Of a stretch of DNA of 64,000 bases, positions 2 through 27,064 are shown one piece after another. How positions within the stretch are numbered: the first letter of the stretch is position 1; each line of letters opens with the position of its first letter. The position numbers and the translations under genes are program-made. The notes beneath the pieces were generated by a model. It was not told the DNA's origin and searched no databases. It saw only the letters and a list, made by a program, of their open reading frames with translations. Source of the DNA: an uncultured bacterium (GTDB taxonomy: Bacteria; Muiribacteriota; Ozemobacteria; Ozemobacterales; Ozemobacteraceae); assembly GCA_946407375.1 (NCBI GenBank), contig CAMJNS010000003.1, positions 15,170-79,169 on the forward strand. The letters run 5' to 3'.

Positions 2-940
2 GATATTGGCGATACTATAAAAAATGGTGACATCGTTGCTGAATTAGATGATGAAGAATTTATTCTAGCTGTTGAACAAGCTGAAGCAGCCTTAGAAATA
101 GCAAAAGCCAATTATAACGAAAGCGGCGAATTGTTAGAAATTTCCAAAAGAGAATTAGAACGCGTTAAAACAATGCGTAAACAAAAAGTTGCTTCAGAAG
201 TAGAAGTTGAAAATGCCAGTGCAGATTTTAAAACTCGTTCTGCAAAGCATATGGTTAATAAATCTTCTTTAAGACAAGCAGAAGCTTCTTTAGCTCAAGC
301 AAAGCTAAAATTAGCTTATACGAAAGTTGATGCTTCCTGGAGTTACGGAACAAACGATAGATTTGTTGCAGAACGTCTTCTTGATGAAGGTGCGATGATT
401 ACTGCGAACACACCAATTATTTCTGTTATAGATATTACAAATCTTACTGCGGTAATTGATGTTGTTGAAAGAGATTATTTCAAAATAAAACAGGGTATGG
501 AAGTTAAGATTTTCCCGACAGCTCTTCCGGGGAAGGAATATACCGCTAAAGTTACAAGAATTGCACCTATGCTTGATGAAGTTTCGAGACAGGCTAGAAT
601 TGAACTAAATTTAAAGAATCCTAATTTTGAATTAAAGCCAGGTATGTTTATTTCTGCCAATATCATTTATGGAACACATCAAAATACTACAATTGTTCCA
701 ATAGAAGCTTTAGTTATTCGTAAAGAAAAAGAAGGCGTGTTTATTGTTGATGAAACCAAAAAAGTTGCAAAATTTGTTCCTGTAGAATGTGGTTATAGAA
801 ATCCAAAACAAGTTGAAATATGCTATCCGGAAATAAGCGGAAGAGTAATTACACTTGGTCAGCACTTACTTGAAGATGGAATGGCAATCAGAATCCCATC
901 TGATGAAGAAAAAGCCAAAGGGAGCGAAACTAAAAAATGA
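2..940 (+). CDS. RND efflux periplasmic adaptor (membrane-fusion protein, HlyD/AcrA family), 5'-truncated by the window edge
   Basis: Frame 2 is open from base 2 (DIGDTIKNGDIVAELDDEEF...). Coiled-coil hairpin followed by beta-rich domains is typical of MFPs. The stop overlaps the start of the RND pump gene (ATGA). Confidence 0.85.
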   Translation, partial: DIGDTIKNGDIVAELDDEEFILAVEQAEAALEIAKANYNESGELLEISKRELERVKTMRKQKVASEVEVENASADFKTRSAKHMVNKSSLRQAEASLAQAKLKLAYTKVDASWSYGTNDRFVAERLLDEGAMITANTPIISVIDITNLTAVIDVVERDYFKIKQGMEVKIFPTALPGKEYTAKVTRIAPMLDEVSRQARIELNLKNPNFELKPGMFISANIIYGTHQNTTIVPIEALVIRKEKEGVFIVDETKKVAKFVPVECGYRNPKQVEICYPEISGRVITLGQHLLEDGMAIRIPSDEEKAKGSETKK

Positions 941-3900
941 AATTATCTAAACAATCTGTAAGACACCCAATTGGCGTTACAATGATAACGCTGATGGTGG
1001 TCATTTTTGGTTTCGTTTCTTTATATAAACTTCCTGTTGATTTGATGCCTGATATGACTTTCCCTATGATAAGCGTTTCTGCGACTTATGAAAATGCAAG
1101 TCCTACAGAAGTCGAAACTTTGATTACCAGACCAATAGAACAGGCTATAGCTGCTGTTTCTGGTGTTGAAGAAATAGAATCATCTTCTAGCGAAGGAAGA
1201 AGTAATGTAAGAATTTCGTTTGCCTGGGGAACAAATCTTGATGCTGCCACAAACGATGTTAGAGACCGCATTGACCGTATCATTAAAAGGTTGCCAGATG
1301 ATATAGACAGACCACAGATACGTAAATTCGACTCTAATGCAATGCCGATTATGGTGCTTGGTGCCTCAGCAGAGTTAGATCCTGTTAAATTGCTTGATTT
1401 AATAGATAATCAGGTTAAATATCGTATAGAAAAAATAGATGGTGTAGCTTCTATTGATGTTATGGGTGGTAATCAACGTGAAATTCAGGTTAATTTGGAT
1501 ATCAATAAGGCAAAAGCCTTAAAAATAAGCCCAGAACAAATTATTAGCAGAATAAGAGCTGAAAATATCAATCTTCCAGCAGGTATGATTGAATCTGGAA
1601 ACTTTGAAATCAGACTAAGAACTCCTGGAGAATTTCAAACTGTTGAGCAGATTTCAAGACTTGTTGTTGGAATGAACGGTCAGCAGGTTATCAGACTTTG
1701 TGATGTCGCAAATGTTGAAGATCATTGGGAAAAGAAAAGAAGTGTTGTTAGAATCAACGACAATGAAGGTGTTCGAATATCTGTCAGCAAGCAATCTGGT
1801 GCAAATACTGTCAACGTTGCAAAAGCTGTAAAAAAAGAAGTTGCAGCAATTAACGAAGAAATTCCTCAATTAAGATTGACTCCTATTGTCGATAGCTCAA
1901 AATACATTACCCGCTCTATTAATAATGTTAGCCAATCTGCTATCTTGGGCGGTATTCTTGCTATTGTTATTTTACAAATATTTCTTGCTAACTTAGCTAG
2001 TACAACTATTATCGCTATTGCTATTCCCGTTTCTATTATCGCAACTTTCACTTTGATGTATTACTTCGGTTTCACATTAAATATCATGTCATTAGGTGGT
2101 GTTGCTCTTGGTATTGGTATGTTAGTAGACAACTCCATTGTTGTTCTAGAAAACATTTTCAGACATAGGGAAAACGGCGTTCCTATTATAGAAGCTTCAA
2201 TTGAAGGCTCTAACGAAGTTGCAATGTCTATTCTAGCTAGTACTCTTACAACTGTTGTTATATTCCTTCCATTACTTTTTGTAGAAGGCGTAACGGGGGT
2301 AATGTTTAAGCAGCTTGCTTATATAGTTGCTTTCTCGCTATTCTGTTCAATGGCTATTTCTCTGACGATTGTTCCAATGATGACTTCTATTTTCTTAAAA
2401 AACGTTGTTTCTAAAGAAGATAAAGCTACTCATAAAGTTGGATTGTTCAAGAGAATGTCTGATGCAATGGTAGGAATCATCCTAAAAATACAATCCTGGG
2501 CACTGAATAAGGTTCTTACTTATAGAGCATCTACTTTCTTTATATTAGGTTGTTTAATTGCTTTTGCTTGTTCCTTGGTAAGTCTTATGGGAACAGAATT
2601 TATGCCCACTGCTGATGAAGGCGAAGTTAGAGTTAGCATTGAAATGGAAGAAGGCTCTAGATTAAGTTTAGTTGATGAAACTTTCAAAAAAGTTGAAGCA
2701 ATTATAAAGGAAAAAGTGCCTGAAAGAGACATTATGTTTACTAATGTTGGTGGTGGCCGAAACTCTGCAGTAAATAAAGGTGATATACGTATTCCTTTAA
2801 AAGCCTCTAATGAAAGAAAAAGAAGCAGTGCCCAGATTGCTGCCGCACTTAGAAAAGATCTTGGCGGCATTCCTGGAACCGTTATCAGAACAAGAGAAGG
2901 TCAGGGAATGTTTATGATGCGTATGGGTTCTGGCTCTGATAAAGTTCAACTTGAAATACGTGGTTATGATATTGAAACTGCCGATGCATTAGGAGCGCAG
3001 GTTGCAAAGCTTATAAAAGAAGTCCCTGGAATTACAGATGTTAAGCTTTCTCGTGAAAAGGGTGTTCCTGAACGTTCTATCATAATAGATCGTGATAAAG
3101 CAGCAGACCAGAAACTTACTATAAATGCAATTTCTACTTTCCTTGAAACTATGATGTCTGGAAGAAGTGCGGGCAATCTTAGAGATGGTTCTAACGAATA
3201 TAAGATATTAGTAAAAGCTACTGATGCTGAATATATGAAGTTAGATGAAATTCTTAATATGGTTATAACCAACTCTGCCGGCAACCCTGTTATGCTTCGA
3301 AATGTCGCTAGACTTGAAAGCAAGATGGGGCCAACTATTATTGAACGTCATAATCAGGAAAGAATTCTTACTCTTTCTGCCGATGTAGAAGGCCGCTCCC
3401 TTGGTTTTGTTATAAAAGATGTTCAAGAAAAGATTAAAGAAATTCCGTTACCAGAAAACTTTGCTATTGTTATGACTGGTGACTACGAAGATCAACAGGA
3501 AGCTTTCATGGAACTGGCCTTCAGCTTTATTCTTGCTATTTTCTTGGTTTATATGGTTATGGCGATTCAGTATGAATCGTTAAGAGACCCTTTTATCGTT
3601 ATGACAACAGTTCCGTTGTCTGTTATCGGTGTTGTTCCTATTCTTTATTTCACAGGAACTACCTTCAATGTTCAAACATTCATTGGTTGTATCATGCTGG
3701 GCGGTATTGTTGTTAACAACTCAATTCTGCTTGTTGACCATATGAATGAGTTAAGACGCAAGAATCCTGATATGGATATTATTGAAGCCGCTAAAGAGGC
3801 AGCATCTAACCGCTGTCGACCAATTCTGATGACTGCTTCAACAACCATTCTTGGTCTTGTTCCTTTGGCATTAGGTTGGGGAGAAGGCGGTGAAATGCAG

Positions 3901-4029
3901 GCTCCAATGGCAAGAGCGGTTATAAGCGGTCTTACTATCGCAACCTTTATATCACTTCTGATTATTCCGCTTATTTACATTGAATTCGACAAAGCTTTTG
4001 GAAGCGGAAAGGCGAAAACAAATAATTAA
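937..4029 (+). CDS. RND (AcrB/HAE1-type) inner-membrane efflux pump
   Basis: 1030 aa with 12-TM RND architecture and two large periplasmic loops. AcrB-like blocks include SVRHPIGVTMITLMVVIFG, GGVALGIGMLVDNSIVVLENI and DPFIVMTTVPLSVIG. Confidence 0.95.
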   Translation: MKLSKQSVRHPIGVTMITLMVVIFGFVSLYKLPVDLMPDMTFPMISVSATYENASPTEVETLITRPIEQAIAAVSGVEEIESSSSEGRSNVRISFAWGTNLDAATNDVRDRIDRIIKRLPDDIDRPQIRKFDSNAMPIMVLGASAELDPVKLLDLIDNQVKYRIEKIDGVASIDVMGGNQREIQVNLDINKAKALKISPEQIISRIRAENINLPAGMIESGNFEIRLRTPGEFQTVEQISRLVVGMNGQQVIRLCDVANVEDHWEKKRSVVRINDNEGVRISVSKQSGANTVNVAKAVKKEVAAINEEIPQLRLTPIVDSSKYITRSINNVSQSAILGGILAIVILQIFLANLASTTIIAIAIPVSIIATFTLMYYFGFTLNIMSLGGVALGIGMLVDNSIVVLENIFRHRENGVPIIEASIEGSNEVAMSILASTLTTVVIFLPLLFVEGVTGVMFKQLAYIVAFSLFCSMAISLTIVPMMTSIFLKNVVSKEDKATHKVGLFKRMSDAMVGIILKIQSWALNKVLTYRASTFFILGCLIAFACSLVSLMGTEFMPTADEGEVRVSIEMEEGSRLSLVDETFKKVEAIIKEKVPERDIMFTNVGGGRNSAVNKGDIRIPLKASNERKRSSAQIAAALRKDLGGIPGTVIRTREGQGMFMMRMGSGSDKVQLEIRGYDIETADALGAQVAKLIKEVPGITDVKLSREKGVPERSIIIDRDKAADQKLTINAISTFLETMMSGRSAGNLRDGSNEYKILVKATDAEYMKLDEILNMVITNSAGNPVMLRNVARLESKMGPTIIERHNQERILTLSADVEGRSLGFVIKDVQEKIKEIPLPENFAIVMTGDYEDQQEAFMELAFSFILAIFLVYMVMAIQYESLRDPFIVMTTVPLSVIGVVPILYFTGTTFNVQTFIGCIMLGGIVVNNSILLVDHMNELRRKNPDMDIIEAAKEAASNRCRPILMTASTTILGLVPLALGWGEGGEMQAPMARAVISGLTIATFISLLIIPLIYIEFDKAFGSGKAKTNN

Positions 4030-4054
4030 ATCTTTCGTTAGTATTGTCTAAGTT

Positions 4055-4094
4055 GCTACCCCAGTAGTTTTTTAACTCTGGGGTAGCATCTTTT
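4055..4094 (+). terminator. Hairpin terminator after the RND pump gene
   Basis: Perfect 10-bp stem gctaccccag/ctggggtagc (4055-4064 and 4078-4087) followed by atctttt. Confidence 0.55.
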
Positions 4095-4231
4095 AGAAAA
4101 GCTGTCTTCATTTGGGTAATTTAAGATCTTCCCCTAGTTTTGCTGGGGGAAGTGATACGTAGTGCCGAAAGGGGGTTTCTCAACAACTGCCAGCAACAAA
4201 AAATAAAAAAATTAAAATTTTTTAAATTCTC

Positions 4232-4415
4232 CGTGGATTTTTAGTTTTTCGTTTTGTCTATATTTATGAAAGCGAACAAAGAACTTCGAAAGCGGTTCTA
4301 TAAAGCATAAATAATAAATCTAAGAAATTAAATTCAGGAGTTAAAATGAGAAAAGTATTTTCAATGGCAGCACTAATGGTATTCATGAACGCAGCAATGG
4401 CTATGGCAGCTTCAG
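4232..4415 (+). repeat. 184-bp perfect direct repeat, copy 1 (promoter + 5'UTR + RBS + signal-peptide codons)
   Basis: Base-for-base identical to 15664-15847 at a constant offset of 11432. Identity ends at a4416 versus g15848. Confidence 0.95.
4235..4260 (+). promoter_or_regulatory. Candidate two-block promoter GGATT-N16-GTCTA (copy A)
   Basis: The GGATT and GTCTA blocks are conserved in all three paralogous upstream regions, while the 16-nt spacer differs in copy B. An A-run/T-run tract lies immediately upstream. Confidence 0.35.
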
Positions 4416-4537
4416 ATCAAGTAACAAACAATCGACAGGATACCTTAAGAAACGACAAGACTCAGGTAGAATTGATGGGCGACAAACATACTGGTTCTGA
4501 TAATATCGATCCCACAAAAGCAGGTGTTAGAGTATAA
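4346..4537 (+). CDS. Small secreted peptide, paralog A (63 aa, Sec signal peptide, ~40-aa hydrophilic mature part)
   Basis: AGGAG sits 6 nt upstream of the ATG. Signal peptide MRKVFSMAALMVFMNAAMAMA/AS. The C-terminal 23 codons differ from paralog B by 6 synonymous and 2 conservative changes. Own terminators follow. Confidence 0.7.
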   Translation: MRKVFSMAALMVFMNAAMAMAASDQVTNNRQDTLRNDKTQVELMGDKHTGSDNIDPTKAGVRV

Positions 4538-4571
4538 AAAGCATAAATAAATGATATAGCCAACAAAAGAC

Positions 4572-4594
4572 CACTCGAAAGAGTGTTTTTTTTT
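4572..4594 (+). terminator. Intrinsic terminator (cactc-gaaa-gagtg + T9)
   Basis: 5-bp stem with GAAA tetraloop followed by nine T, 35 nt after the peptide A stop. Confidence 0.6.
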
Positions 4595-4636
4595 GCTTTG
4601 TTGTTATTGTAATCTCTAAACTTAGTTAACAACCGC

Positions 4637-4662
4637 CTCTGAAGCAATTCAGAGATTTTTTT
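4637..4662 (+). terminator. Intrinsic terminator conserved between peptide genes A and B
   Basis: ctctgaa-gcaa-ttcagag followed by a T-run. The block aaccgcctctgaagcaattcagagattttttt recurs at 5884-5914. Confidence 0.7.
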
Positions 4663-4698
4663 GTTTTTAGCAAAATTATCTCATTTCTAATTTTATAT

Positions 4699-5103
4699 CT
4701 ATTTGTTCAAATATTTATTACAAAACTCTCTAGCTGTTATTATTTTTGTCTTTTCAAACTTTTTTAAAACCAATAAATCTTTGTCGCCACTCACTATGTA
4801 AAGAGCTCCAGAATCTTTTGCACAACCAAGAAATTTATTGTCATCCGGGTCTCTACATATTTTAACATTTGATTTAGCCGTGATTATTTTTAAAGACTTT
4901 ATCAATGGAAACAATATATCTTTTCTTAATTTGCCTTGTTTCATATCTATCATTTCATCAACGATTTCTTGATATTCTTCAACAATTTCTGTTGTTGCAA
5001 AAGCATCAAATTCTTTCTGCAAAACAGCTTCTAGTATTTTTCTTGGTTCTCCACCGAAAAACACAGCAGAAATAACAACATTTGTATCTAGAACTATTTT
5101 CAT
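4699..5103 (-). CDS. PIN-domain toxin (VapC-like) of a type II toxin-antitoxin pair
   Basis: 134 aa. N-terminal MKIVLDTNVVISAVFFGG with acidic residues spaced as in PIN domains. 4-bp overlap with the upstream antitoxin gene. Confidence 0.8.
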   Translation of the reverse strand: MKIVLDTNVVISAVFFGGEPRKILEAVLQKEFDAFATTEIVEEYQEIVDEMIDMKQGKLRKDILFPLIKSLKIITAKSNVKICRDPDDNKFLGCAKDSGALYIVSGDKDLLVLKKFEKTKIITAREFCNKYLNK

Positions 5104-5366
5104 TTCCTTTTCTTTTTTCTTACCGATTTGATTATGTTGTTAACATCGCTTTCTTTATAACCTACAGAATCAGCCCATTCTTTTGCTTCGTCTAATGTTT
5201 TAGAAAATTCTTCAGCGGTTGGAAGTCTCAAGACTTTCAGCATTACAACATCACCAGAAGTATAAACAGCCAGTTTGTCGCCAGCATCAATATTTAAATT
5301 TCTTCTAATAGCAATTGGTAAAGAAATTTGCCCCTTAGATGAAAGAGTTAATATTCGAGCGTCCAT
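5100..5366 (-). CDS. AbrB/SpoVT-family antitoxin
   Basis: 88 aa. SSKGQISLPIAIRRNLNIDAGDKLAVY is a looped-hinge-helix (AbrB/MazE) signature. Translationally coupled to the PIN gene. Confidence 0.8.
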   Translation of the reverse strand: MDARILTLSSKGQISLPIAIRRNLNIDAGDKLAVYTSGDVVMLKVLRLPTAEEFSKTLDEAKEWADSVGYKESDVNNIIKSVRKKKRK

Positions 5367-5384
5367 TTTTTTGTTTTTCCTTTG

Positions 5385-5399
5385 GTAAGAATTTCTTAC
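5385..5399. promoter_or_regulatory. 15-bp perfect palindrome, candidate TA operator
   Basis: gtaagaa-t-ttcttac lies just upstream of the RBS (AAGGA) of the antitoxin gene on the minus strand. Confidence 0.4.
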
Positions 5400-5523
5400 T
5401 TAATTATAACATAAAAATCTTAATTTCAAAATTCGTCATTACTAGAACCTTTTAAACAGCTACAATAACTACCAACTACAATAAAAACTTTCAAAAAAAA
5501 TGAAATTTTTTTTGAAAATTCGT

Positions 5524-5549
5524 GGATTTTATAAATTTCATTTTGTCTA
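5524..5549 (+). promoter_or_regulatory. Candidate two-block promoter GGATT-N16-GTCTA (copy B)
   Basis: Same blocks and spacing as 4235-4260 but with a different spacer sequence. The flanking cgtggatttt and ttttgtctatattta.gaaagcgaac are conserved. Confidence 0.35.
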
Positions 5550-5605
5550 TATTTACGAAAGCGAACGAAATAAAAATAAAGTAAATAAACTTAGGAGTAG
5601 AAAAA

Positions 5606-5800
5606 ATGAAAAAAGTATTATCAATGGTAGCATTAATGGTATTTATGAACACAGCAATGGTTATGGCAGCTTCAGATCTAGTATCAAACAAACGACAGGA
5701 TACCACCTTAAGAAATGAAAGAACCCAAGTAGAACTTATGGGCGATAAACATACTGGTTCTGATTATATAGATCCAACAAAAGCAGGCATAAGAGTTTGA
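5606..5800 (+). CDS. Small secreted peptide, paralog B (64 aa)
   Basis: AGGAG RBS. Signal peptide MKKVLSMVALMVFMNTAMVMA/AS. Mature part aligns end to end with paralog A (VELMGDKHTGSD.IDPTKAG.RV). Confidence 0.7.
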   Translation: MKKVLSMVALMVFMNTAMVMAASDLVSNKRQDTTLRNERTQVELMGDKHTGSDYIDPTKAGIRV

Positions 5801-5888
5801 AAAACAGTAAACAGACAGCGAGGTAAAAACAAGCAAATCTAAAGATTGAAAGAAAAATTGCGATTCACAAAATTAAGTAAACAACCGC

Positions 5889-5914
5889 CTCTGAAGCAAT
5901 TCAGAGATTTTTTT
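5889..5914 (+). terminator. Intrinsic terminator, same sequence as 4637-4662
   Basis: ctctgaa-gcaa-ttcagag followed by a T-run. Confidence 0.7.
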
Positions 5915-6118
5915 ATTTTAGCTTCTATTGGCGTAATATTTTTTGTTTATTTGTTATAAATACATTCACTACTTTGGTTATTATTACTTAATTCCAACAT
6001 AAATAATATAAAATCATAGTTAACAACTTAATAAATTATTCAAAGAAAGTTTTTCATGGTCTTAGAAAGACTTATAATAAAGTTAACTATCTTTTATATA
6101 TTTATAAGGAGAATTAAA

Positions 6119-6880
6119 ATGGTAGAGGAACTTCTATTTACAAAAATTGTTGATAAATCGACTCTTTATGAAGGAATAAGCATTCCTGTTGCTTATCAGA
6201 AATTTCTTTTAAGTAAAATGCATTTCTCCTTAGAAAAAGGTAGTCAGAAAAATATTAAAGTGGAAATGTGTGGATATATTTACGATGATGCTGTTATAAA
6301 GAATCAATTTTTTGATGAAGTGAAATTTCCAAATCACTCAGATTTAATACAGATTCGTTATGCTAAGCAAAGTTTACTTGCCCAAAAAATACGTGAAGTT
6401 TTTTCTGTAACAGAATATTTCGTTAATGAGTATTGGAAAAATCAAGCGGATAATAAATCACACCTTGTTATACCTGAAGACAGAAGAGAATACATTGCTT
6501 TATATGTATCAAAAGATAGAATTCGATTTGATTGTATTCCACGTAATTTAACAATAAATACTCAGTCAAAAACTGATTTTGGTGAGGAAGCACCTCAAAG
6601 AAGAGAAACAACGACTTTGGGGTTCAAAAGAAATGCAAACGTTATCGAAAAAGCAAAAGAACGTGCTTCAGGAATTTGTCAATTGTGTGGTAATCTAGCT
6701 CCTTTTTGTGATAAACAGGGATATCCATATTTGGAAGTACATCATGTAATATGGCTTTCACGTGGAGGTGCTGATAAATTAAGCAATGTAGTTGCTTTAT
6801 GTCCAAATTGCCATTCGAAAATGCATATCGTCGATGATGAACAAGATATAGCACTTTTACTAGAAAAAGCTAAGCTATAA
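6119..6880 (+). CDS. HNH endonuclease (McrA-like C-terminus) with an uncharacterised N-terminal domain
   Basis: C-terminal CQLCG...PYLEVHHVIWLSRGGADKLSNVVALCPNCHSKMH is a CxxC/HH/N/CxxCH HNH motif. Start moved to the ATG at 6119, which has AAGGAG 7 nt upstream. The N-terminal FTKIVDKSTLYEGISIPVAYQKF resembles the opening of B3/EcoRII-N pseudobarrels (weak). Confidence 0.8.
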   Translation: MVEELLFTKIVDKSTLYEGISIPVAYQKFLLSKMHFSLEKGSQKNIKVEMCGYIYDDAVIKNQFFDEVKFPNHSDLIQIRYAKQSLLAQKIREVFSVTEYFVNEYWKNQADNKSHLVIPEDRREYIALYVSKDRIRFDCIPRNLTINTQSKTDFGEEAPQRRETTTLGFKRNANVIEKAKERASGICQLCGNLAPFCDKQGYPYLEVHHVIWLSRGGADKLSNVVALCPNCHSKMHIVDDEQDIALLLEKAKL

Positions 6881-6976
6881 TATAATTCATACAGTAATTT
6901 GCTATAGAAACAATTGTTGATTTATAATCGTATTAATTCTAAAGTAATACATAAAATAAATAAGAGCTTCTGTAAT

Positions 6977-8431
6977 ATGAACTATGACGAACTAGTAAAT
7001 CTAAGACAAATGAATGTCGCTTGGATTTTGCTTCGAGCTGATAATGCCCCATTAATAATAAGTTTTCTACACAAAACTTTTATAGAGCCAAATAAAAGAG
7101 ATATAGCCAAAAACATATTAGAAAATTTACTTGAAGATGAGTTGTTCAAATTAAGAGATAGAAATCAGGATCTTTTTCCTAAAAAAGCGTCTGAATACAT
7201 TACAGATTGGCAAAAAAGTGGCTATTTAAGGAATTTTTATGTTGATAACGACGATGAGCCTCATTATGATATTTCCGCAAAGGCAGAAAAAGCCATTCAA
7301 TGGATAGACGATTTAATATCTAAAAAATTCGTAGGTACTGAATCGCGTTTAAGAACTATTTTCAGTTTAGTTGAACAAATAGTTATTGGATCTGATAGAA
7401 ACAAAGAAAATCGTTTAGAAAATTTGGAAAAGCAAAAACAAACTCTTGAAGCTGAAATAGAGAAATTGAAGGCTGGAAATGTATCTATTTTAAGCGATAG
7501 TGAAATTAAAGACAGATTTCAGCAGGTTATTTCTTTGTCTAATATGATGTTAAGCGATTTTAGAGAAGTTGAAGATAATTTTAGAAAACTAGACCAAGCC
7601 ACACGAGAAAAAATAGCAACCAGTGATGGTGCCAAAGGAGAAGTTCTAGAAACTCAATTCAAAGATTTTGATTACATTGAGTCAACCGATGAAGGAAAAA
7701 GCTTTAAAGCCTTTATGCAATTTATTATGTCGCAAGATAAAATAGACGATTTCGATGAAAAATTGGCTAAAATACTTGAAATGAAACAGATTAAAGAGCT
7801 CAAACCAGATAAAAAAATTGCTAAAATATATCGAAATTGGCAGAAAGCTGGAGAATCAACTCAAAAAATGGTTATAAAACTTACTCAAAGACTAAGTAGG
7901 TATGTAAGCCAAAATATATCATCCCAAAACAAAAGTATTGAGCGACTTATAAAAAGAATAGAAAACATGGCAATAAAACTTAAAACAATTGCTAATAACG
8001 ACAAAAATTACATGGATATAGATAAAGCAGGAATTGAATTATCTATGCCAATGGAATTACCTCTTTGGACTTCTTCTGAAAAGCCAAATATTGTTTCAGA
8101 CATTGAAATTGGCTTAGAAAATGACATAGATGATAGTGCCCTATATAATCAAGTCTTTGTAGATAAGCAATCCATAATAGATAATATTCGTAAAGCACTG
8201 AATTTAAATGAACAAACAACTTTAGGACAGGTTATAAATAATAATCCGTTAAATAAAGGTTTAATGGAGTTAATAAGCTATTTTAGCGTTGCAAGTGAAA
8301 TGCAAAACAACCGGCAAATTAATATAATTTGTGATGATTCAAGTAAAGAAGAAATAAAATGGTTAGATGAAAGTTTGCAAGCAATTCGAGTTGCCAAAAT
8401 TCCAAAAATAACAATAAGCTACGAGAAATAA
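6977..8431 (+). CDS. jetA: Wadjet JetA (kleisin-like subunit, DUF3375-type)
   Basis: N-terminal MNVAWILLRADNAPLIISFLHKTF matches the conserved JetA opening as I recall it. ~484 aa with a central coiled coil. First of four contiguous genes with JetABCD sizes and order. Confidence 0.8.
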   Translation: MNYDELVNLRQMNVAWILLRADNAPLIISFLHKTFIEPNKRDIAKNILENLLEDELFKLRDRNQDLFPKKASEYITDWQKSGYLRNFYVDNDDEPHYDISAKAEKAIQWIDDLISKKFVGTESRLRTIFSLVEQIVIGSDRNKENRLENLEKQKQTLEAEIEKLKAGNVSILSDSEIKDRFQQVISLSNMMLSDFREVEDNFRKLDQATREKIATSDGAKGEVLETQFKDFDYIESTDEGKSFKAFMQFIMSQDKIDDFDEKLAKILEMKQIKELKPDKKIAKIYRNWQKAGESTQKMVIKLTQRLSRYVSQNISSQNKSIERLIKRIENMAIKLKTIANNDKNYMDIDKAGIELSMPMELPLWTSSEKPNIVSDIEIGLENDIDDSALYNQVFVDKQSIIDNIRKALNLNEQTTLGQVINNNPLNKGLMELISYFSVASEMQNNRQINIICDDSSKEEIKWLDESLQAIRVAKIPKITISYEK

Positions 8432-8432
8432 A

Positions 8433-9056
8433 ATGACTATATCTGAAGAAGAAAAAAATAATTATAACTTTTCCAAAATACTTATAAACCTTATGAAAGG
8501 TATTGTTTATAGAGAAGATGATGTAAATATTTGGAATTATTTAGAAGATAATGAATCTCAAGTTTCTGAACACTTTAAAATAATTGGTTTACGGCTAATT
8601 ATTGATAAATCAAGAGGTTACGCTTATTTAAAGCAAATCTTATTTAACCTGGAAGAGGAACAACTGCCCAGATTAATAAGGAAACAACCTCTAAGTAGAC
8701 AAGTATCAATATTAATTGTTGTTTTACGGCAAATTGTTATAGAAAAAGAAAACTCAGGTAGTGATGATAGAATCATTGTTTCTTTTGATGATATAGCAGA
8801 TAAATATAGAGCGTTTTATCCAAATAGCAATGATGATGAAAAAAAATTCTATAAAGATTTAAAATCATATTTAAAGAAGGTTATAGATTTAGATTTTATT
8901 AGAGAATTAAAAAGTGAAGAAGATAATTATGAAATAAAACCAATAATAGTATCATTTGTAGATATGGATTGGCTTAACAATTTCAAGGACAGGTTAACAG
9001 ATGAATTGAGAGAAAACAATATAGATATTGCTGATGAAAATGAGGATTTAGAATGA
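8433..9056 (+). CDS. jetB: Wadjet JetB (KITE-like subunit, DUF4194-type)
   Basis: 207 aa acidic protein. Starts 1 nt after the jetA stop and overlaps jetC by 4 bp. Size and position fit JetB. Confidence 0.7.
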   Translation: MTISEEEKNNYNFSKILINLMKGIVYREDDVNIWNYLEDNESQVSEHFKIIGLRLIIDKSRGYAYLKQILFNLEEEQLPRLIRKQPLSRQVSILIVVLRQIVIEKENSGSDDRIIVSFDDIADKYRAFYPNSNDDEKKFYKDLKSYLKKVIDLDFIRELKSEEDNYEIKPIIVSFVDMDWLNNFKDRLTDELRENNIDIADENEDLE

Positions 9057-12000
9057 ATTACGAACAAAGCTTTTTAGAATTTGCAACAGATAATTCAACA
9101 ACAGGTTTTAGACTAGATCGTTTAGAAATACTTAATTGGGGAACTTTCGACCAAAAAGTCTGGTCTCTTTATCCCTCAAGCAGAAATATTCTAGTTACTG
9201 GTGAAATTGGTTCAGGAAAATCAACAATAGCAGATGCAATTAGTACTTTGCTTGTTCCTCCACAGTGGTTGTCTTTTAATAAAGCCGCAGGAGCAGAAAG
9301 AAGAGAGAGAGATTTAAAGTCTTATGTTTTAGGTTTCTATAAAACAGAATCTGCTGATAGTGGTCTAATAGGTAAACCAGTAGCTTTACGTGATATAAAT
9401 TCATATTCTGTAATATTGGGAGTTTTTAAAAATTCAGGATACAATCAAGTTTATACGCTAGCACAAGTTTTTGTAGCCAAACCAGAAGGTGGGCAACCTG
9501 AAAGATTTTATTTTATTTCAAGTTCAGATTTATCAATTAAAAATGATTTTTCAGGCTTTGGAAATGAAATCAAAGCATTAAAATCAAGATTAAGAAAAAT
9601 ACCTGATTCAAAAATTTATGATACTTTTCTACAATACGCTAACGATTTTAAAAGATATTTTGGAATAGATAATAATCAGGCTTTGGGTTTATTTAATCAA
9701 ACAATTTCAATGAAGTCTGTTGGAAATCTTACGTCTTTTATTCGCGAAAATATGCTTCAAGAATATGAAACGAATGAAGAAGTAAATGCAATGATTCAGA
9801 ATTACGAACAGCTTTCAAAAGCTCATGACGAAATTCTTAAAGCCAATGATCAGATAGAAATCTTAAAGAAAATATCTAATATTGGTCAAGAATGTAGCAA
9901 ATTTGAAAAAGAAATAAATGATACTGAAAATAAATTAGATGCTTTACATTCTTATATGCTAGTAAACAAAGTTTCTTTTGTAGAAAAAGAAATTAATAGA
10001 TTAAATAATGAAAAAGAAAATGTTGATCAAGAATTAAATAAATTAAAAGAAGATGAAACAAACTATAATAGTCAAGTAACAGAAATAACTACTAATATAG
10101 TTTTAAATGGTGGCAATGAGATTACAGAAATAGAAAATAAAATAAAAACTCAAGAAAAAGAACTAAATAAACGCAAAAGAAATGAGGAAGAATATAAATC
10201 TATTTTAGCTATGACAGATTTAATATTCCCCATTGATATAGCAAGTTTTGAAAATAACAAACGTCAAATTGAAACAATAAGAAATTATACAAAATCAGAA
10301 TATTCTATAAAAAATGAAGAAAAATTTAGCAAAAAGCTTAATATTCAGGTATTAAAAAACAATAAAAAACAAATAGATGATGAAATAAATTCATTAAAAG
10401 GGCGTATAAACAATATTCCACTAGAACAAATAAAGATAAGAAGTTTAATTTGTACTAAAACAGGTTTGTTAGATGATGAATTACCATTTGTTGGAGAGCT
10501 TATTCAGGTAAAAGAAAGCGAAAAAGCATGGCAAGGAGCTATTGAGCGAGTCCTTCATGGTTTTGGGTTATCTCTATTAGTATCTGATTCTGTATATTCT
10601 AAAGTATCCAAAGCTGTTGATGAAACAAATCTTAAAGGTAAAATTGTTTATTTCAGAGTAAAAAACTTGGAAAACAGAATAAGTAACTATAATATTTCAC
10701 CAAATTCTATGGTTAGGAAAATAAAGGTAAAGCCAGATTGTTGGGCTTATGATTGGTTGCAAAATGAATTAGAAGAAAGATTTAATTATATATGTTGTGA
10801 AAACTTAGAATTATTCCAAAAAGAAAAATATGCAGTTACAATAAATGGTCAGGTTAAACATGGTGGAGTAAAGCATGAAAAAGACGATAGAAAAGCAATT
10901 AACGATATTTCTACTTATATTTTAGGCTGGAATAATAAAGAAAAAATATTAAATTTAAAAGCTGAATCTGATAAAATTCAAGAAGAAATAAATTCTTTAT
11001 TATCTGAAATAAAATTACTAGATAATAGATTAAAATTATTAGAACTTAAAGACAATAAATTGCATGAACATATAAAATATAGTAGCTATGAAAATATAGA
11101 CTGGAAAAGCATTGATTTAGAAATAAAAGAGTTACAAGAAAGATTAGAAGAGCTACATAAATCTTCTGACAAACTTAATAAGCTAAGAGAACAAAAAACA
11201 AAGCTAGAAGAAAAAATAAATGAGATAAAAGTTATAATTAATACAAAAACTAAGAAACAAGGCGGAATTGAAAATAAAATAAGCGAATTAAATAAAATAT
11301 TAAACAAATCTAGTGATGAAATAAATTCTAATAATGACTTCCCCAAGACAGAATATTTAGAAAGTTGTTTAAGTGAAATAATAAATGATATTAAAGAAAT
11401 ATCATCATTAGAAGAGTTTGATAGACAAGAAAGAATTTTAAACAAAAAATTTAATGATTTGAAATCAAATCTTCAAAAGGATTTTAGTGATAAAAAGAAT
11501 ATATTAGTCAAAGAAATGAGTGTATTTAAAAATAAATATGTCTTAGAATCAGCAGAACTGGGGCAAGAATATCAATATCTTTCTGATTACAATAAATTCC
11601 TTTTAAGGCTACAAAATGATGATTTGCCTAGATTTGAAACAAGATTTAAAGATTTACTGCATCAACAAACAATTCAAGGAATTGCTTCCTTTAATTCAAA
11701 GTTAAACAGAGATTCTGAAGAAATAAAAGATAGAATTAGAGCTATAAATGAGTCGTTAAAAGAAATTCAGTATAATGAAGGTCGTTATATAAGAATTGAA
11801 GTTATTTCTAATAATGACAAAGAAATAAATGATTATAAAAGCGATTTACGAAATTGCACAAACAATTCATTAAATTTTTCTGATGACGAATATTATAATG
11901 AACAAAGATTTGAAGCCGTTAAAGTAATTATAGACAGATTAAAAGGTCGAGAAGGCTTTATTGATGCAGATAAAAAATGGCGTTTAAAAGTTACTGACGT

Positions 12001-12433
12001 TAGAAATTGGTTTAATTTTGCTGCTTCTGAAAGATATAAGTCTGATGACAGTCAGGCAGAATATTACAATGATTCTACAGGAAAATCCGGAGGACAAAAA
12101 GAAAAGCTTGCATATACTATATTGGCGGCGGGATTAGCTTACCAATTTGGTTTAAGAAAAATAGGCGAAACCAAATCAAGAAGTTTTAGGTTTGTTGTAA
12201 TTGATGAAGCTTTTGGTCGTGGAAGTGAAGAATCAGCCCGCTTTGGATTAGAACTTTTCAAAAAACTGGATTTACAGATAATGGTTATAACACCTTTGCA
12301 AAAAATACACGTCATAGAGCCATATATAGACAATGTGGGTTTTGTGGCTATCAGCGACAACAGGTCTAGAATTCGTAATTTAAGTATAGAGCAATATAAA
12401 GAAGAATATAATGAAAGAACTACAAAACAGTAA
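9053..12433 (+). CDS. jetC: Wadjet JetC (SMC-like ATPase)
   Basis: 1126 aa. N-terminal Walker A GEIGSGKST, a very long K/E/N-rich coiled-coil middle, then C-terminal signature SGGQKEKLAYTILAAGL and Walker B FRFVVIDEAFGRGS. Confidence 0.9.
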   Translation: MNYEQSFLEFATDNSTTGFRLDRLEILNWGTFDQKVWSLYPSSRNILVTGEIGSGKSTIADAISTLLVPPQWLSFNKAAGAERRERDLKSYVLGFYKTESADSGLIGKPVALRDINSYSVILGVFKNSGYNQVYTLAQVFVAKPEGGQPERFYFISSSDLSIKNDFSGFGNEIKALKSRLRKIPDSKIYDTFLQYANDFKRYFGIDNNQALGLFNQTISMKSVGNLTSFIRENMLQEYETNEEVNAMIQNYEQLSKAHDEILKANDQIEILKKISNIGQECSKFEKEINDTENKLDALHSYMLVNKVSFVEKEINRLNNEKENVDQELNKLKEDETNYNSQVTEITTNIVLNGGNEITEIENKIKTQEKELNKRKRNEEEYKSILAMTDLIFPIDIASFENNKRQIETIRNYTKSEYSIKNEEKFSKKLNIQVLKNNKKQIDDEINSLKGRINNIPLEQIKIRSLICTKTGLLDDELPFVGELIQVKESEKAWQGAIERVLHGFGLSLLVSDSVYSKVSKAVDETNLKGKIVYFRVKNLENRISNYNISPNSMVRKIKVKPDCWAYDWLQNELEERFNYICCENLELFQKEKYAVTINGQVKHGGVKHEKDDRKAINDISTYILGWNNKEKILNLKAESDKIQEEINSLLSEIKLLDNRLKLLELKDNKLHEHIKYSSYENIDWKSIDLEIKELQERLEELHKSSDKLNKLREQKTKLEEKINEIKVIINTKTKKQGGIENKISELNKILNKSSDEINSNNDFPKTEYLESCLSEIINDIKEISSLEEFDRQERILNKKFNDLKSNLQKDFSDKKNILVKEMSVFKNKYVLESAELGQEYQYLSDYNKFLLRLQNDDLPRFETRFKDLLHQQTIQGIASFNSKLNRDSEEIKDRIRAINESLKEIQYNEGRYIRIEVISNNDKEINDYKSDLRNCTNNSLNFSDDEYYNEQRFEAVKVIIDRLKGREGFIDADKKWRLKVTDVRNWFNFAASERYKSDDSQAEYYNDSTGKSGGQKEKLAYTILAAGLAYQFGLRKIGETKSRSFRFVVIDEAFGRGSEESARFGLELFKKLDLQIMVITPLQKIHVIEPYIDNVGFVAISDNRSRIRNLSIEQYKEEYNERTTKQ

Positions 12434-13616
12434 AGACATAAAAGAAGAACTTAATAAAGTTTGGAATAAAGGCTTGATTTTGTGTCAAAAATTAAGCATT
12501 AACAAAGATCAAAGAGTCATAGAATTTCCTTATAAAATAAGACTTAGACAGCCTGCATCAAAAGATAGAGCTGATATTTCAAATTATAATACAATTAAAG
12601 ATTGGTGCAAGCACTGGAAAGATCAATATGATTTATTTGGCAAGCAAAAACTTAATATAAGCATTGAATATATGCCGATTAATGACAGAATTTTAGGGAA
12701 ACAGGAACTTCCTGCGTATATTGTGGTAAATGATATAAATAGCTTCATACATTATATAAAAAAAGAAAAAGAGATTAAACAATTTGAAGAAATAGTAACG
12801 GTTATTTTTGATGAATGTTCTAATCTCCTTAATTTAATGAATGATAAGCCTTTCGATTTTTTGAAATACGATTCAAAAGAATGGCACAAAATTATACAAG
12901 TATCTGTTTGGATAGCTAACAATCCAAATCCAAATATTTATTTAAGAGAATTGGAAATTCCTAATGTTGATACAAAATTTATAGAAAAGCATGATGGAAT
13001 TTTGAAAAAAGTAATAAATTTTCTTCTTAACAAAGATGAAAAAGATTTTGCTACGAATAATTTTGAAGTACGCTATGGATTCAAAAGAAAGCCTGTAACA
13101 GTTCATTTTCGTATTCTTGACAAAGATTTAGCTATAAATGGCTTAACGGATTTAGAAATCCCTATTGAGGATTTTGCTAGATTAAATATTTCTGTCAAAA
13201 AAGCATTTATAATAGAAAACAAGATTACAGGGTTGTCTTTCCCAAATGTAAAATCAGCAATAGTTATTTTTGGTCTTGGTTTTGGGCTAGATAGACTTAA
13301 AAAATGCGGTTGGCTGAATAATTTGGAATTATATTATTGGGGTGACTTAGATACAAACGGTTTTGTTATGCTAGACCAGTTCCGTTCTTATTTTCCAAAA
13401 GCCAAATCAATGCTAATGACTTCAGAAATTGTTAAAGAGCACAAAGATATGTGGGTTAAAGAGGAAAAACAATCTATTAGAGAGTTAACTCATTTAACAG
13501 CTGATGAAGCAAATACCTACAAAGAATTAAAAGAAAACAAACACACCAACAATTTACGCTTAGAACAAGAACGAATTAATTTTTCTTTTGTAAAAGAATT
13601 TTTAAATAGTCTATAA
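12411..13616 (+). CDS. jetD: Wadjet JetD (Toprim/topo-VI-like nuclease subunit)
   Basis: 401 aa and overlaps jetC by 23 bp. C-terminal YYWGDLDTNGFVMLDQFR is a Toprim DxD motif, as in JetD/MksG. Confidence 0.8.
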   Translation: MKELQNSKDIKEELNKVWNKGLILCQKLSINKDQRVIEFPYKIRLRQPASKDRADISNYNTIKDWCKHWKDQYDLFGKQKLNISIEYMPINDRILGKQELPAYIVVNDINSFIHYIKKEKEIKQFEEIVTVIFDECSNLLNLMNDKPFDFLKYDSKEWHKIIQVSVWIANNPNPNIYLRELEIPNVDTKFIEKHDGILKKVINFLLNKDEKDFATNNFEVRYGFKRKPVTVHFRILDKDLAINGLTDLEIPIEDFARLNISVKKAFIIENKITGLSFPNVKSAIVIFGLGFGLDRLKKCGWLNNLELYYWGDLDTNGFVMLDQFRSYFPKAKSMLMTSEIVKEHKDMWVKEEKQSIRELTHLTADEANTYKELKENKHTNNLRLEQERINFSFVKEFLNSL

Positions 13617-13709
13617 ATAATACTATTTTTTACGTTTGGTTTTAAAGGTGGATTAGTTATGGTTGATGAAATTTCTAATCGATCTTATTGTCTTTTCAAT
13701 TCTCAATTC

Positions 13710-15413
13710 TCATTTTACAACAGCTACTCGGCAGCGCTTTTTATAGCAGGCTATGACAAACTTTCTGACTACATAAGTATCTTCGTCATCGAAGATTTTG
13801 ATATATCGATTGTTTTCGATTTGCTTTATTCCCTCGTCAAGAGCTTCCTGGAATTTTTTGGGGCTTTCTGCGTATTTGAGTTCTATTATTATGCCAATAG
13901 TATAGCTTGGAGTGTAAAGAATAAGGTCAGGATAGCCGTAACCAGATTCTTTGTTTGATTCAACAATAAGTTTCTTGTTGTTTGGGGTTAATAAGCCTAG
14001 CAGAAGACCATGGTAGAAGTTTTCCTTGTAATCTTTCTTCGCCATACTGTCTCTGACACTGATAGACTGCTCCAGAATTTCAGTAAAAGCTTTTTCAACT
14101 TTTTCTGCATTTCCATCATATAAACCATCATAGAGTTCATTCATAAGAGGCTGTTTTTCTATGAAAGAATCTTTCATCCATTCCATAATCTGATCTTCAT
14201 AAAGAACTCTTATTTCTCTATTGGGAATTCTTAGACTGAAAGTGTCGTTGCTTTCTCGGTCGGTAAAGGTAAGATAGCCCGTAGAAAAAAGAACGCTCCA
14301 GATATTGTCTGTCTTTTTATACAAATCTCTGTAGGTAATTTCCTGCTTAATCTTTTTAGTGATTGTCTCGCCAGCAACCAGGCTTTCAATCTCTCTTTTG
14401 GTTGAGTTGTCAGCTTCTTTTAAGAATTTGATTATTATGTCGTTTCCGCTGGTATTTGCCCAGTAAGGTTTTGGAAAAACATTTATATCTGTATCTAGTT
14501 GGCTACAGAAAAGTATTACATCCCATGGGCAATAGACTTCTTTTTTCCCGAATCTATAACCATCATACCATTTTTTTGCATCGTCGAATCTAGAAGAAAC
14601 TTTGTAGTAATCGAACATTTCTCTAACTTCGTCTTCTGTGAAACCAAAAAATTCGGAAGCTTCATTATCTGCAATAGAAAATACGTTGAAATTATTTACT
14701 CCAGTAAAAATGCTTTCTTTGGCTATTCTCAGGCAACCAGTAAGCACAGCCATTTCTAAATATGGATTTGTTTTGAAAGTGTTATTGAACATTCCCCTTA
14801 TAAGAGAAATCATTTCGTTGAAATAACCATTGTTTTCCGCTTTATCTAAGGGAACATCATATTCGTCGATAATGAAAACTGTCTTTTTGCCGTAATGTTT
14901 GTATATTAGTTCAGAAAGAATTCTGAGGCTTTTGGTAATTAGATCATTTTGTTTTTCTTTATCGTATTTTTCTATATTTTTTATACTTTTAAAAGTATCT
15001 TTTTCTTCATCGTTTAATTTTTCACTATTAGATAAATCATTAAAAGAGCGAACAGCATCTAGAACCAGTCCCATTAGATGGAGTCTTGCGGATTCAAAAC
15101 TGTTTCCTTCAACGCCTTTTAAAGTCATAAAAATAGTAGGAAACTGGTTCTGCCATTCTTCACAAAGTGTTTTGTTCTCAGATATTTTCAAGCCATTGAA
15201 TAATTCTGGATTGCCACCCATTCTTAAAAATTCGTAAAGCATGGTCATGTTAAGAGTTTTGCCGAAACGTCTTGGGCGGGTGAATAGATTTACATCACCC
15301 TTTTTCTCTTTCAGATATTCTATTAACCCTGTTTTATCAATATAATAAGAATGGTCGTTTATTAGTTTTTCAAAAATATCTGTTCCTATTGGTAATGGCT
15401 TTTTATTGGACAT
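13710..15413 (-). CDS. AAA-ATPase-like protein with C-terminal PD-(D/E)XK nuclease domain (AAA-ATPase_like + PDDEXK_9 architecture)
   Basis: N-terminal PIGTDIFEKLI...YIDKTGLI...FTRPRRFGKTLNMTML is the family signature. The C-terminus has YPDLIL...IIIELKY, a D...ExK motif. Confidence 0.8.
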   Translation of the reverse strand: MSNKKPLPIGTDIFEKLINDHSYYIDKTGLIEYLKEKKGDVNLFTRPRRFGKTLNMTMLYEFLRMGGNPELFNGLKISENKTLCEEWQNQFPTIFMTLKGVEGNSFESARLHLMGLVLDAVRSFNDLSNSEKLNDEEKDTFKSIKNIEKYDKEKQNDLITKSLRILSELIYKHYGKKTVFIIDEYDVPLDKAENNGYFNEMISLIRGMFNNTFKTNPYLEMAVLTGCLRIAKESIFTGVNNFNVFSIADNEASEFFGFTEDEVREMFDYYKVSSRFDDAKKWYDGYRFGKKEVYCPWDVILFCSQLDTDINVFPKPYWANTSGNDIIIKFLKEADNSTKREIESLVAGETITKKIKQEITYRDLYKKTDNIWSVLFSTGYLTFTDRESNDTFSLRIPNREIRVLYEDQIMEWMKDSFIEKQPLMNELYDGLYDGNAEKVEKAFTEILEQSISVRDSMAKKDYKENFYHGLLLGLLTPNNKKLIVESNKESGYGYPDLILYTPSYTIGIIIELKYAESPKKFQEALDEGIKQIENNRYIKIFDDEDTYVVRKFVIACYKKRCRVAVVK

Positions 15414-27059: not shown

Positions 27060-27064
27060 GTTCA

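Follow-up and report, generated by a model that had tools for sequence, protein, structure and literature searches.

We analysed a 64-kilobase (kb) stretch of DNA from an uncultured bacterium (GenBank assembly GCA_946407375.1, contig CAMJNS010000003.1, forward-strand positions 15,170 to 79,169; hereafter the window), which carries two short genes, pepA and pepB, whose 5' ends are shared with a larger gene, p628. The coding sequence (CDS) of pepA (4346-4537, plus strand) specifies 63 amino acids, including a signal peptide at residues 1-21 (4346-4408) and a predicted mature peptide of 42 residues, ASDQVTNNRQDTLRNDKTQVELMGDKHTGSDNIDPTKAGVRV; that of pepB (5606-5800, plus strand) specifies 64 amino acids and a predicted mature peptide of 43 residues. 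AGGAG ribosome-binding sites lie at 4336-4340 for pepA and 5593-5597 for pepB, 5 and 8 nucleotides (nt) before the ATG. By inspection, the N-termini consist of MRK or MKK, the hydrophobic core VFSMAALMVFMNAAM and the junction AMA/AS in pepA or VMA/AS in pepB; read by eye, these are the charged n-region, the hydrophobic h-region and the small residues at -3 and -1 of a substrate for Sec and type I signal peptidase. Both products carry a predicted Sec-type signal peptide with cleavage after residue 21, and the predicted mature peptides are hydrophilic and free of Cys, with a net charge of about -1. The third gene, p628 (15778-17664, plus strand), lies 3' of a defence island and encodes a protein of 628 amino acids.

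The three genes have a common upstream sequence. A 26-nt box, TTTTGTCTATATTTAYGAAAGCGAAC, is found only at positions 4252, 5541 and 15684 of the window, where chance would produce no occurrence, and each peptide gene is preceded by the conserved box CGTGGATTTT...TTTTGTCTATATTTAYGAAAGCGAAC. The pepB copy of this promoter box (5521-5566, plus strand; CGTGGATTTT...TTTTGTCTATATTTACGAAAGCGAAC) is kept in all homologous loci. A sigma-70 scan did not flag the conserved box, and the promoter label comes from its conservation and position; transcripts from it would begin a few nt after TATATT, near GAAAGCGAAC. At the 3' end, pepA is followed by a first terminator-like hairpin (4572-4594, plus strand; hairpin at 4572-4585, CACTCGAAAGAGTG, then a T-run), and the 3' module that contains it also follows some of the homologues (L018-L020 in our numbering of homologous loci and contigs). 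A second terminator (4628-4662, plus strand; hairpin at 4637-4654) is a 35-nt segment in common with pepB, whose own terminator (5880-5914, plus strand) has its hairpin at 5889-5906 and then a T-run. The two 35-nt segments are identical (AACAACCGCCTCTGAAGCAATTCAGAGATTTTTTT) and the sequence occurs nowhere else in the window, again with none expected by chance; a terminator scan scored both as terminator-like, among 6 such sites in the region compared to about 1.0 expected. An Rfam scan of 3900-6100 at E<=1 gave no match, and the conserved leader is not a known RNA family.

A sequence-only reading of this stretch that preceded our analysis had reported both open reading frames (ORFs), their AGGAG sites, their Sec signal peptides and their common terminator, and had placed the two genes on either side of a toxin-antitoxin cassette and upstream of defence genes. 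We found all of these features where that reading had put them, with PIN_3 and MazE genes between the peptide genes and HNH and JetA-D genes downstream. It had also noted that the peptides share their mature N-terminus with the 628-residue protein and then diverge from it completely, and profile alignment bears this out: in an hhalign comparison of the peptide family with 22 p628 homologues, the alignment is confined to residues 1-41 (E=8.6e-14), which are the signal peptide and first beta-strand, and stops at KTQ. The shared mature segment (SGL.SYNR.DV.FKY.KT.) is conserved across the p628 family down to 33% identity, all 22 p628 homologues have the same signal-peptide layout, and in other genomes, too, p628 genes have this promoter box and a small hairpin in the leader. 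The shared N-terminal segment is native to the p628 family. Given that the homology stops at residue 41 and that the segment is native to p628, the peptide gene is a partial 5' duplicate of a p628-family gene. This duplicate comprises the promoter, the 5' untranslated region (5'UTR), the signal peptide and the first strand, with a 23-codon tail (VELMGDK...IDPTKAG[VI]RV) and a terminator that are both new.

The body motifs of p628 (WYY..N.PRL, GG.LQ and TYWK..YSLP) do not align with the peptides, which match the larger protein over residues 1-41 only; the peptide is a derivative of the 5' end of the p628 family, not a member of it. Four variants (L023, L025, P0057 and P0091) keep more p628-like residues (SYNRQ.VTF), and for this reason they look like intermediates or conversion products. 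We also searched for a source of the tail within p628. ELMGDK of the tail resembles DLMGDK in p628 residues 146-163 (shuffle P 0.03-0.04), and a search of the p628 reading frames found a 15-nt identity at 16028-16042; both were rejected as chance matches, since they are in the wrong order and have no hhalign support.

The differences between pepA and pepB suggest that the protein sequence matters. Over the last 23 codons there are 6 synonymous differences (at L, D, I, P, G and V codons) and 2 replacements (N/Y and V/I), exactly as counted in the sequence-only reading, which had taken them as a sign of purifying selection. We extended this comparison to 19 unique coding sequences drawn from 33 fetched loci and the window, a set that is non-independent, recombining and partly taken from called ORFs. 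For the whole mature part, the synonymous (pS) and nonsynonymous (pN) divergences are 0.234 and 0.097, and their ratio, dN/dS, is 0.37 (bootstrap confidence interval (CI) 0.22-0.64; 0 of 2000 resamples reached 1). The two halves behave alike: the N-terminal mature part has pS 0.236, pN 0.104 and dN/dS 0.39 (CI 0.20-0.82), and the tail has pS 0.233, pN 0.092 and dN/dS 0.35 (CI 0.14-0.85). Six codons, at alignment positions 25, 33, 50, 51, 54 and 62, are hypervariable (pS 0.309, pN 0.381, dN/dS 1.33); when these are left out, the mature part gives pS 0.219, pN 0.055 and dN/dS 0.22. The signal peptide shows very low synonymous divergence (pS 0.067, pN 0.073-0.077, dN/dS 1.09-1.16).

The pattern of individual changes points the same way. 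An invariant Pro is encoded by CCA, CCC, CCG and CCT, an invariant Leu by TTG, CTG and CTT, and the Gly and terminal Val positions vary only synonymously. There are at least 92 substitutions among the sequences and 4.1% of point mutations would make a stop, so at least 3.7 nonsense changes are expected under neutrality; none was seen (P=0.024). Insertions and deletions within the CDS involve whole codons only, compared with many indels of the flanks, and in nearly all copies the stop position is conserved and the gene has its own terminator. By dN/dS, the lack of nonsense changes and the in-frame indels, the genes do not look like pseudogenes, two defective copies excepted. These results show that the coding sequence is under purifying selection, a few hypervariable positions apart.

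The 5' module of pepA (4232-4415, plus strand) contains the promoter box, a 5'UTR with a small hairpin at 4281-4298, the ribosome-binding site and the signal-peptide codons. Exact-match extension showed that these 184 nt, which begin with the first base of the promoter box and end at the signal-peptidase site, are 100% identical to the p628 module (15664-15847, plus strand); over the following stretch of about 57 nt identity is abruptly lower, at about two thirds, and beyond it nothing is shared. The two modules are direct repeats 11.4 kb apart, so they bracket the toxin-antitoxin cassette, pepB and the defence island. pepA has a p628-type signal peptide (MAALMVFMNAAMAMAAS) and a p628-type hairpin leader, and pepB and most homologues have a peptide-type signal peptide and leader. 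The 184-nt identity indicates recent gene conversion. Together with the very low synonymous divergence of the signal peptide, the identical tract shows that peptide and p628 genes recombine and that they exchange the promoter and signal-peptide module. Tail variants combine HTG, DAG, HVD or HAD with N, Y, S, G or K in mosaic fashion, and they differ between strains at one locus (L014 versus L019).

The leaders themselves are of two kinds. The p628-type 5'UTR hairpin, with a GAAA or AAAA loop, is present in the window at 4281-4298 and 15713-15730 and in the leaders of L031, L032 and L034; its sequence is GAACTTC-GAAA-GCGGTTC in the window and GAATCAC-GAAA-GTGATTC in L031, with the pairing largely preserved, and a deletion has removed it from the usual peptide-type leader. 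The hairpin may be an element for messenger RNA stability or translation. In some copies the repeat unit reaches about 100-200 nt 5' of the promoter box (TTGTAGTAATTTATCGATTTATTTCAAACTTTTGATTGCTTGAGAACTAAACAATCCTCTTATCTCT...), as at 15570-15663 of the window, at about 7800-7960 and at 14400-14448 of L001 and at 2400-2507 of L025; an alternative upstream type (CAACTACCAACTACAATAAAAAC...) precedes pepA, pepB and others. These extensions could be regulatory sites or merely part of the recombining unit.

The sequence-only reading had recognised no known family and had proposed a wider search for relatives. Searching 5.8 billion proteins, we identified 67 distinct peptide homologues at 66-100% identity, nearly all intact at 63-64 amino acids; the exceptions are N-terminally extended gene calls, variants of 57-58 amino acids from an internal Met and one fragment of 34 amino acids. 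HMMER with the family profile yielded, from all proteins in 1.84 billion cluster representatives, just 2 full-length clusters at 50% identity and, beyond the peptide family, only p628 N-termini, with no remote homologues. Pfam, NCBIfam, PADLOC, PDB sequences and Rfam gave no match for the peptides, in keeping with the absence of a recognised family. The named sources of homologues are Candidatus Riflebacteria metagenome-assembled genomes (MAGs) from rumen and reindeer, and the species-representative genomes contain three peptide loci, of which a reindeer-rumen Riflebacteria MAG has two and the rumen genome RUG334 has one. The peptide family is young and restricted to one lineage of uncultured rumen Riflebacteria. 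Neither IMG/VR viral contigs nor phage records contained a relative, and an origin from a phage or plasmid was rejected on these grounds. One source labels the peptide an LpoB lipoprotein; since neither pepA, pepB nor any of 42 aligned homologues has a Cys for a lipobox, that label is not credible. In L013 (1956-2412) and L022 (1-340), two peptide genes stand about 65 nt apart and the second has a ribosome-binding site and no promoter box, so these tandems are two-gene peptide operons.

We next consider where the copies lie. Peptide units occupy about 8-10 different loci, nearly all of them defence or toxin-antitoxin islands, and every context with readable flanks has defence, toxin-antitoxin or PADLOC-candidate genes. 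HNH and Wadjet type I genes adjoin the peptide unit in the window, in L010 and L037-40 and in L012, and Wadjet I without the HNH gene does so in L001. Wadjet III (JetB3/JetC3) with PDC-S01 is found in L006-9, and PDC-S01 (AAA_14/DUF4143) in L011 (on both sides), L015, L021 and L037. Other neighbours are HipA (PDC-M03A) in L011, a type I restriction-modification S subunit with PDC-S02 in L013, the YhcG nuclease (PDC-S02) in L023/24, DUF3990 modules (PDC-M13/M10/M42) in L014/19, L022 and L023/24, and PIN/MazE in the window and L025. Matches to PADLOC models include JetA1 and JetC1, and 9 of 10 further neighbours tested also matched; pepA, pepB and p628, in contrast to these many matching neighbours, matched no PADLOC-DB 2.0 family. 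The association with defence genes is general across many loci and extends beyond this window.

The units also bracket cassettes. In the window the order, in direct orientation, is pepA, PIN-MazE, pepB, HNH-Wadjet-ATPase and the p628 5' module. L022 has two peptide genes, then genes for 79 amino acids, DUF3990 and 81 amino acids, then another peptide gene; in L025 and L001 a peptide gene is followed by PIN-MazE or by a Wadjet remnant and an ATPase gene, respectively, and then by an upstream module at the contig end. The PIN/MazE cassette of the window recurs after a peptide gene in L025. pepB has the position of the copies in L010/L037 and L012, 5' of HNH-Wadjet, and the L001 copy is 5' of Wadjet without HNH; in all, four lineages have the same peptide-Wadjet junction and different genes 5' of the peptide. 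Many contigs end within a peptide unit, as expected for a dispersed repeat. These results show an enrichment of peptide units, as direct repeats, at defence-cassette borders. The Wadjet genes of L001 (8740-11288) appear degraded: JetA is cut to 295 amino acids, the HNH gene is absent, and an ORF of 471 amino acids that starts like JetB and matches JetC at 84% is followed by a JetC fragment of 87 amino acids.

Within the window, the toxin-antitoxin cassette (4699-5366, minus strand) consists of a PIN_3 toxin gene (4699-5103) and a MazE/AbrB-type antitoxin gene (5100-5366) and lies between pepA and pepB, themselves in direct orientation. The body of the defence island (6056-15413) contains an HNH nuclease gene whose product resembles type IV restriction enzymes (6056-6880), Wadjet type I JetA-D (6914-13616) and an AAA-ATPase_like/PDDEXK_9 gene (13710-15413, minus strand). 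Among the window ORFs scanned, none had an integrase or transposase domain; any movement of cassettes would have to proceed by homologous recombination.

The larger protein from which the peptides appear to derive is predicted to be a beta-rich envelope protein of 628 amino acids (AlphaFold model with a mean confidence, pLDDT, of 78 and a predicted template modelling score, pTM, of 0.73). In this model, the segment homologous to the peptides is the first strand of an N-terminal beta-hairpin (E26-37 and E40-49). p628 has no Pfam, NCBIfam, PADLOC or PDB-sequence match, and a PDB profile search with it also gave none. A fold assignment by Foldseek against PDB and BFVD was rejected, the only hits being multi-domain beta-sandwich proteins with template modelling scores of 0.1-0.2. 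For the peptide itself, the AlphaFold2 model is a single long helix with pLDDT 51-59 in the mature part, which we treated as uninformative; modelled on its own, the mature peptide appears unstructured.

Four contigs hold p628 in a conserved gene cluster (L034 236-12734, L035 5373-15547, L042 252-13040 and L043 338-12898). Its genes are, in order, a Big_1 lipoprotein; a lipoprotein of 141 amino acids; a secretin, with GspD and PilQ models as best matches, below their trusted cut-offs; a distant p628 paralogue of 577 amino acids that has the WYY..NPKL and GEIPI.TP motifs in common with p628; one or two p628 genes; and a TIG/NHL protein of about 1190 amino acids. There are no ATPase or pilin genes inside the cluster on these four contigs, and it resembles no secretion system that we could name. 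The first p628 gene of the L042 and L043 clusters has the same promoter box directly 5' of it and an identical signal peptide, MRKVFSMAALMVFMNAAMAMAAS; L042 and the peptide locus L009 are from one sample. In L034, the p628 gene is followed by its own terminator-like hairpin. We infer that p628, transcribed separately and probably strongly, is the major product of an envelope system associated with the secretin. With p628 homologues in secretin operons, the suggestion of the sequence-only reading that the shared mature N-terminus may have a common role in sorting or anchoring, or as a pro-peptide, is a reasonable one. In one MAG, at least 3 partial p628 copies stand at contig ends.

Other features of the window lie further from the peptide genes. 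The window is chromosomal, has 33% G+C and carries tuf, nusG, the genes for ribosomal proteins L11, L1, L10 and L7/L12, and tyrS. Genes for a membrane-fusion protein (131-940) and an AcrB-type pump of the resistance-nodulation-division (RND) family (937-4029) are separated from that of a TolC-like outer-membrane efflux protein (OEP; 18024-19715) by about 14 kb that hold pepA, the toxin-antitoxin cassette, pepB, HNH, Wadjet, the ATPase gene and p628; this looks like a tripartite efflux operon split through insertion of the whole pepA-to-p628 island. Between them, the regions 49451-54884 and 56725-62848 contain three consecutive genes for membrane proteins of about 600 amino acids, two of which match PMT_2 glycosyltransferases, and three sulfatase-family paralogues of about 540-590 amino acids with GT2 glycosyltransferases interleaved; this arrangement looks like an expanded cluster for envelope modification. 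ORFs without a Pfam match are found at 28341-30032 (minus strand, 563 amino acids), 36807-38849 (minus strand, 680 amino acids) and 27050-27877 (plus strand, 275 amino acids), the first of them adjoining a pair of T2SSE/PilB-type ATPase genes (30126-33293).

Several known systems resemble the peptide genes in part. As in truncated paralogues that arise from partial duplication, homology to p628 extends over the promoter, the 5'UTR, the signal peptide and the first 19-20 mature residues and has a sharp end; unlike such paralogues, the peptide gene has gained a conserved 23-residue tail and a terminator, is under purifying selection, has multiplied and still swaps its 5' module with its parent. 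Sec-dependent class II bacteriocins of the enterocin P type are monocistronic genes with a signal peptide, a product of about 40 residues and several variant copies. The peptide gene is like them in each of these respects. It differs in that its host has outer-membrane machinery (a secretin and a TolC-like OEP), that there is no adjacent immunity gene, and that the mature peptide is hydrophilic and slightly acidic, lacks Cys and matches nothing in Pfam or NCBIfam. Class II bacteriocins and microcins have a double-glycine leader and a dedicated ATP-binding cassette (ABC) exporter, or else an adjacent immunity gene, and their mature peptide is cationic, hydrophobic or Cys-containing; the peptide here is not of this class, with its Sec leader, its charge of about -1 and neither a recurrent immunity gene nor a recurrent ABC exporter gene. 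As a candidate for arbitrium-type or other peptide signalling, it has no conserved adjacent regulator, and no phage-borne relative was found.

Two further comparisons concern the envelope. Llp of phage T5 and Cor are small envelope proteins that bring about phage exclusion by blocking a receptor, and the peptide is likewise a small predicted exported protein, encoded among anti-phage genes and possibly interacting with an envelope protein. In contrast to Llp and Cor, it is not a lipoprotein (it has no Cys) and it is not prophage-encoded. In donor-strand complementation, the logic of chaperone-usher systems, a peptide strand completes a partner's incomplete fold or competes for it. As for genome organisation, sedentary chromosomal integron arrays are reported to carry defence and toxin-antitoxin cassettes (bioRxiv 10.1101/2024.07.02.601686). 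The present loci are similar in that a repeated element, always in one orientation, alternates with short cassettes of defence or toxin-antitoxin genes. They differ from integrons, which have an IntI tyrosine recombinase and attC sites between promoterless cassettes, in that the repeat is not attC but a complete, selected protein-coding gene with promoter and terminator, and an integron array was rejected because the scanned window ORFs include no integrase and the repeats have no attC-like organisation.

Taken together, we put at roughly 0.55 the probability that the peptides are a real, selected family born from the 5' end of p628, that they act as envelope peptides together with p628, and that their units provide homology for defence cassettes. 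Their promoter and signal peptide are those of p628, so it is probable that the peptides are synthesised with p628 and reach the periplasm together with it. Our tentative suggestion for their function is that the peptide is co-expressed and co-exported with p628 and may act in the envelope through its retained N-terminal strand. It would present this strand (the S-x-N-R-Q-D motif) to the partner or export route of p628; the S-x-N-R-Q-D and L-R..K-T-Q positions are conserved in both families. The conserved tail, ending in the invariant [VI]-R-V-COOH, and the variable patch would supply a specific activity. We put forward just as tentatively, and not as an exclusive alternative, that the units of about 0.5 kb serve as homology for the capture and loss of cassettes. 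Whatever the peptide does, this homology would let cassettes be inserted, deleted or swapped: a single crossover between a circular cassette unit and a resident unit would yield unit-cassette-unit, with one copy added each time. Crossover capture of this kind, if it occurs, would explain the copy number, orientation, mosaicism and island location of the units.

A number of observations weigh against this interpretation. Signal-peptide cleavage was judged by eye, and the peptide model (pLDDT 51-59) neither supports nor refutes strand mimicry. Compared to p628, the peptide strand has lost most of its hydrophobic positions (Y to N, V to T, F to L, Y to N), which makes it less likely that the peptide simply fits the same groove. 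In the window, p628 is an extra copy that lies outside a secretin cluster, and the dN/dS values come from 19 non-independent, recombining sequences. A reindeer-rumen lineage has ATG-A7 instead of ATG-A6, a +1 frameshift found in four independent assemblies (L010 3286-3296; L037-L040 at the same position) in a copy that stands upstream of HNH-Wadjet; this could be a fixed inactivation or slippage in the A-run. Database variants of 57-58 amino acids that begin MVALMVFMN may derive from such frameshifted copies. In L027, a copy at 1342-1455 is 5'-truncated, starting at about codon 28 without promoter or signal peptide, and keeps the tail and terminator. With one lineage frameshifted and one copy truncated, individual peptide copies must be dispensable, which fits a multicopy family. 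The one Logan contig examined for transcript evidence runs on through the terminator and so does not look like a transcript. Excision circles, or breakpoints of cassette presence and absence inside the units, were not directly observed.

The same data allow other readings, which differ mainly in how much they ask of the peptide. The sequence-only reading had allowed that the genes might be decaying 5' fragments of the 628-residue protein's gene family. The 5' origin in this scenario stands, and the decay falls, given the new tail and terminator, the multiplication and the selection. Indeed, that the units are functionless p628 remnants, persisting through their youth or through copying with neighbouring DNA, is the least probable of all the readings: their derivation from the p628 5' end, the frameshifted lineage, the truncated copy and the very narrow phylogenetic spread would suit it, but decay would not leave a mature dN/dS of 0.37 with a CI below 1, several synonymous codons at invariant Pro, Leu, Gly and Val, no nonsense change against at least 3.7 expected, in-frame indels only in the CDS beside flanks with many, and a stop position and terminator kept in nearly all copies. 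It is also unlikely, if less so, that the peptide product is incidental and the 0.5-kb unit only portable homology, an integrase-free landing pad for cassettes. Much of the genomic context would follow from this: the defence, toxin-antitoxin or PADLOC-candidate genes in every context with readable flanks, the same-orientation units that bracket cassettes in the window (twice), L022, L025 and L001, the 184-nt tract of 100% identity, the absence of integrase and transposase domains from the scanned window ORFs, and the four lineages with a common peptide-Wadjet junction and differing upstream genes. A pure homology role would not, however, yield protein-level purifying selection on the tail, nor keep the ribosome-binding site, start codon, signal peptide and stop codon; it is compatible with our preferred explanation as a second role, not as the only one. 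A doubtful proposal, to which we give a little more weight than to the incidental product, makes the units the scaffold of an integrase-free defence-cassette array driven by homology, with protection of the envelope against phage as an optional function of the peptide. PIN/MazE, DUF3990 modules, HNH-Wadjet and PDC-S01 would be captured at a resident peptide or p628 5' module, the peptide gene would double as a recombination site, and any protection would come from mimicry of the N-terminal strand of the secretin-associated p628.

Two readings give the peptide a more specific task. It is quite unlikely that it is a secreted effector or signal, bacteriocin- or pheromone-like, that crosses the outer membrane by the p628 secretin route, with the hypervariable positions as specificity types. 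The Sec signal and small hydrophilic mature peptide, the six hypervariable positions (dN/dS 1.33) with variants that differ at one locus (L014 versus L019), and an N-terminal segment in common with a protein encoded in a secretin operon are what such an effector might show, whereas no immunity, receptor, kinase or ABC-exporter gene is consistently adjacent, and the peptide is near-neutral, without Cys and not amphipathic, unlike known bacteriocins. That the peptide is an envelope anti-phage factor, one that mimics the p628 strand and so masks, or is a decoy for, a putative phage receptor or entry route based on p628, is highly improbable. Its recurrence in defence islands of differing composition would agree with such a mask, as would its N-terminal homology to a secretin-associated envelope protein and its hypervariable positions; yet the peptide has no match among PADLOC models, viral contigs and phage records contained no copy, and recombination explains the association with islands equally well.

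Two observations are new here, the presence of p628 in a secretin operon of relatives and the recurrence of peptide units in defence islands, where they bracket cassettes. The peptides form a new orphan family of predicted secreted peptides, and their association with defence cassettes is unusual and possibly mechanistically meaningful. The p628 gene points to an uncharacterised secretin/lipoprotein/p628 cluster whose major product has no detectable structural relative. For the peptide family, this is a case of gene birth, in which a new small, predicted secreted protein arose from the front of a larger gene, with the donor family, the junction and the ongoing exchange of the promoter and signal-peptide module still visible. 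A selected peptide gene at the borders of cassettes also suggests that defence islands in this uncultured phylum may be built and reshuffled by recombination, without an integrase.

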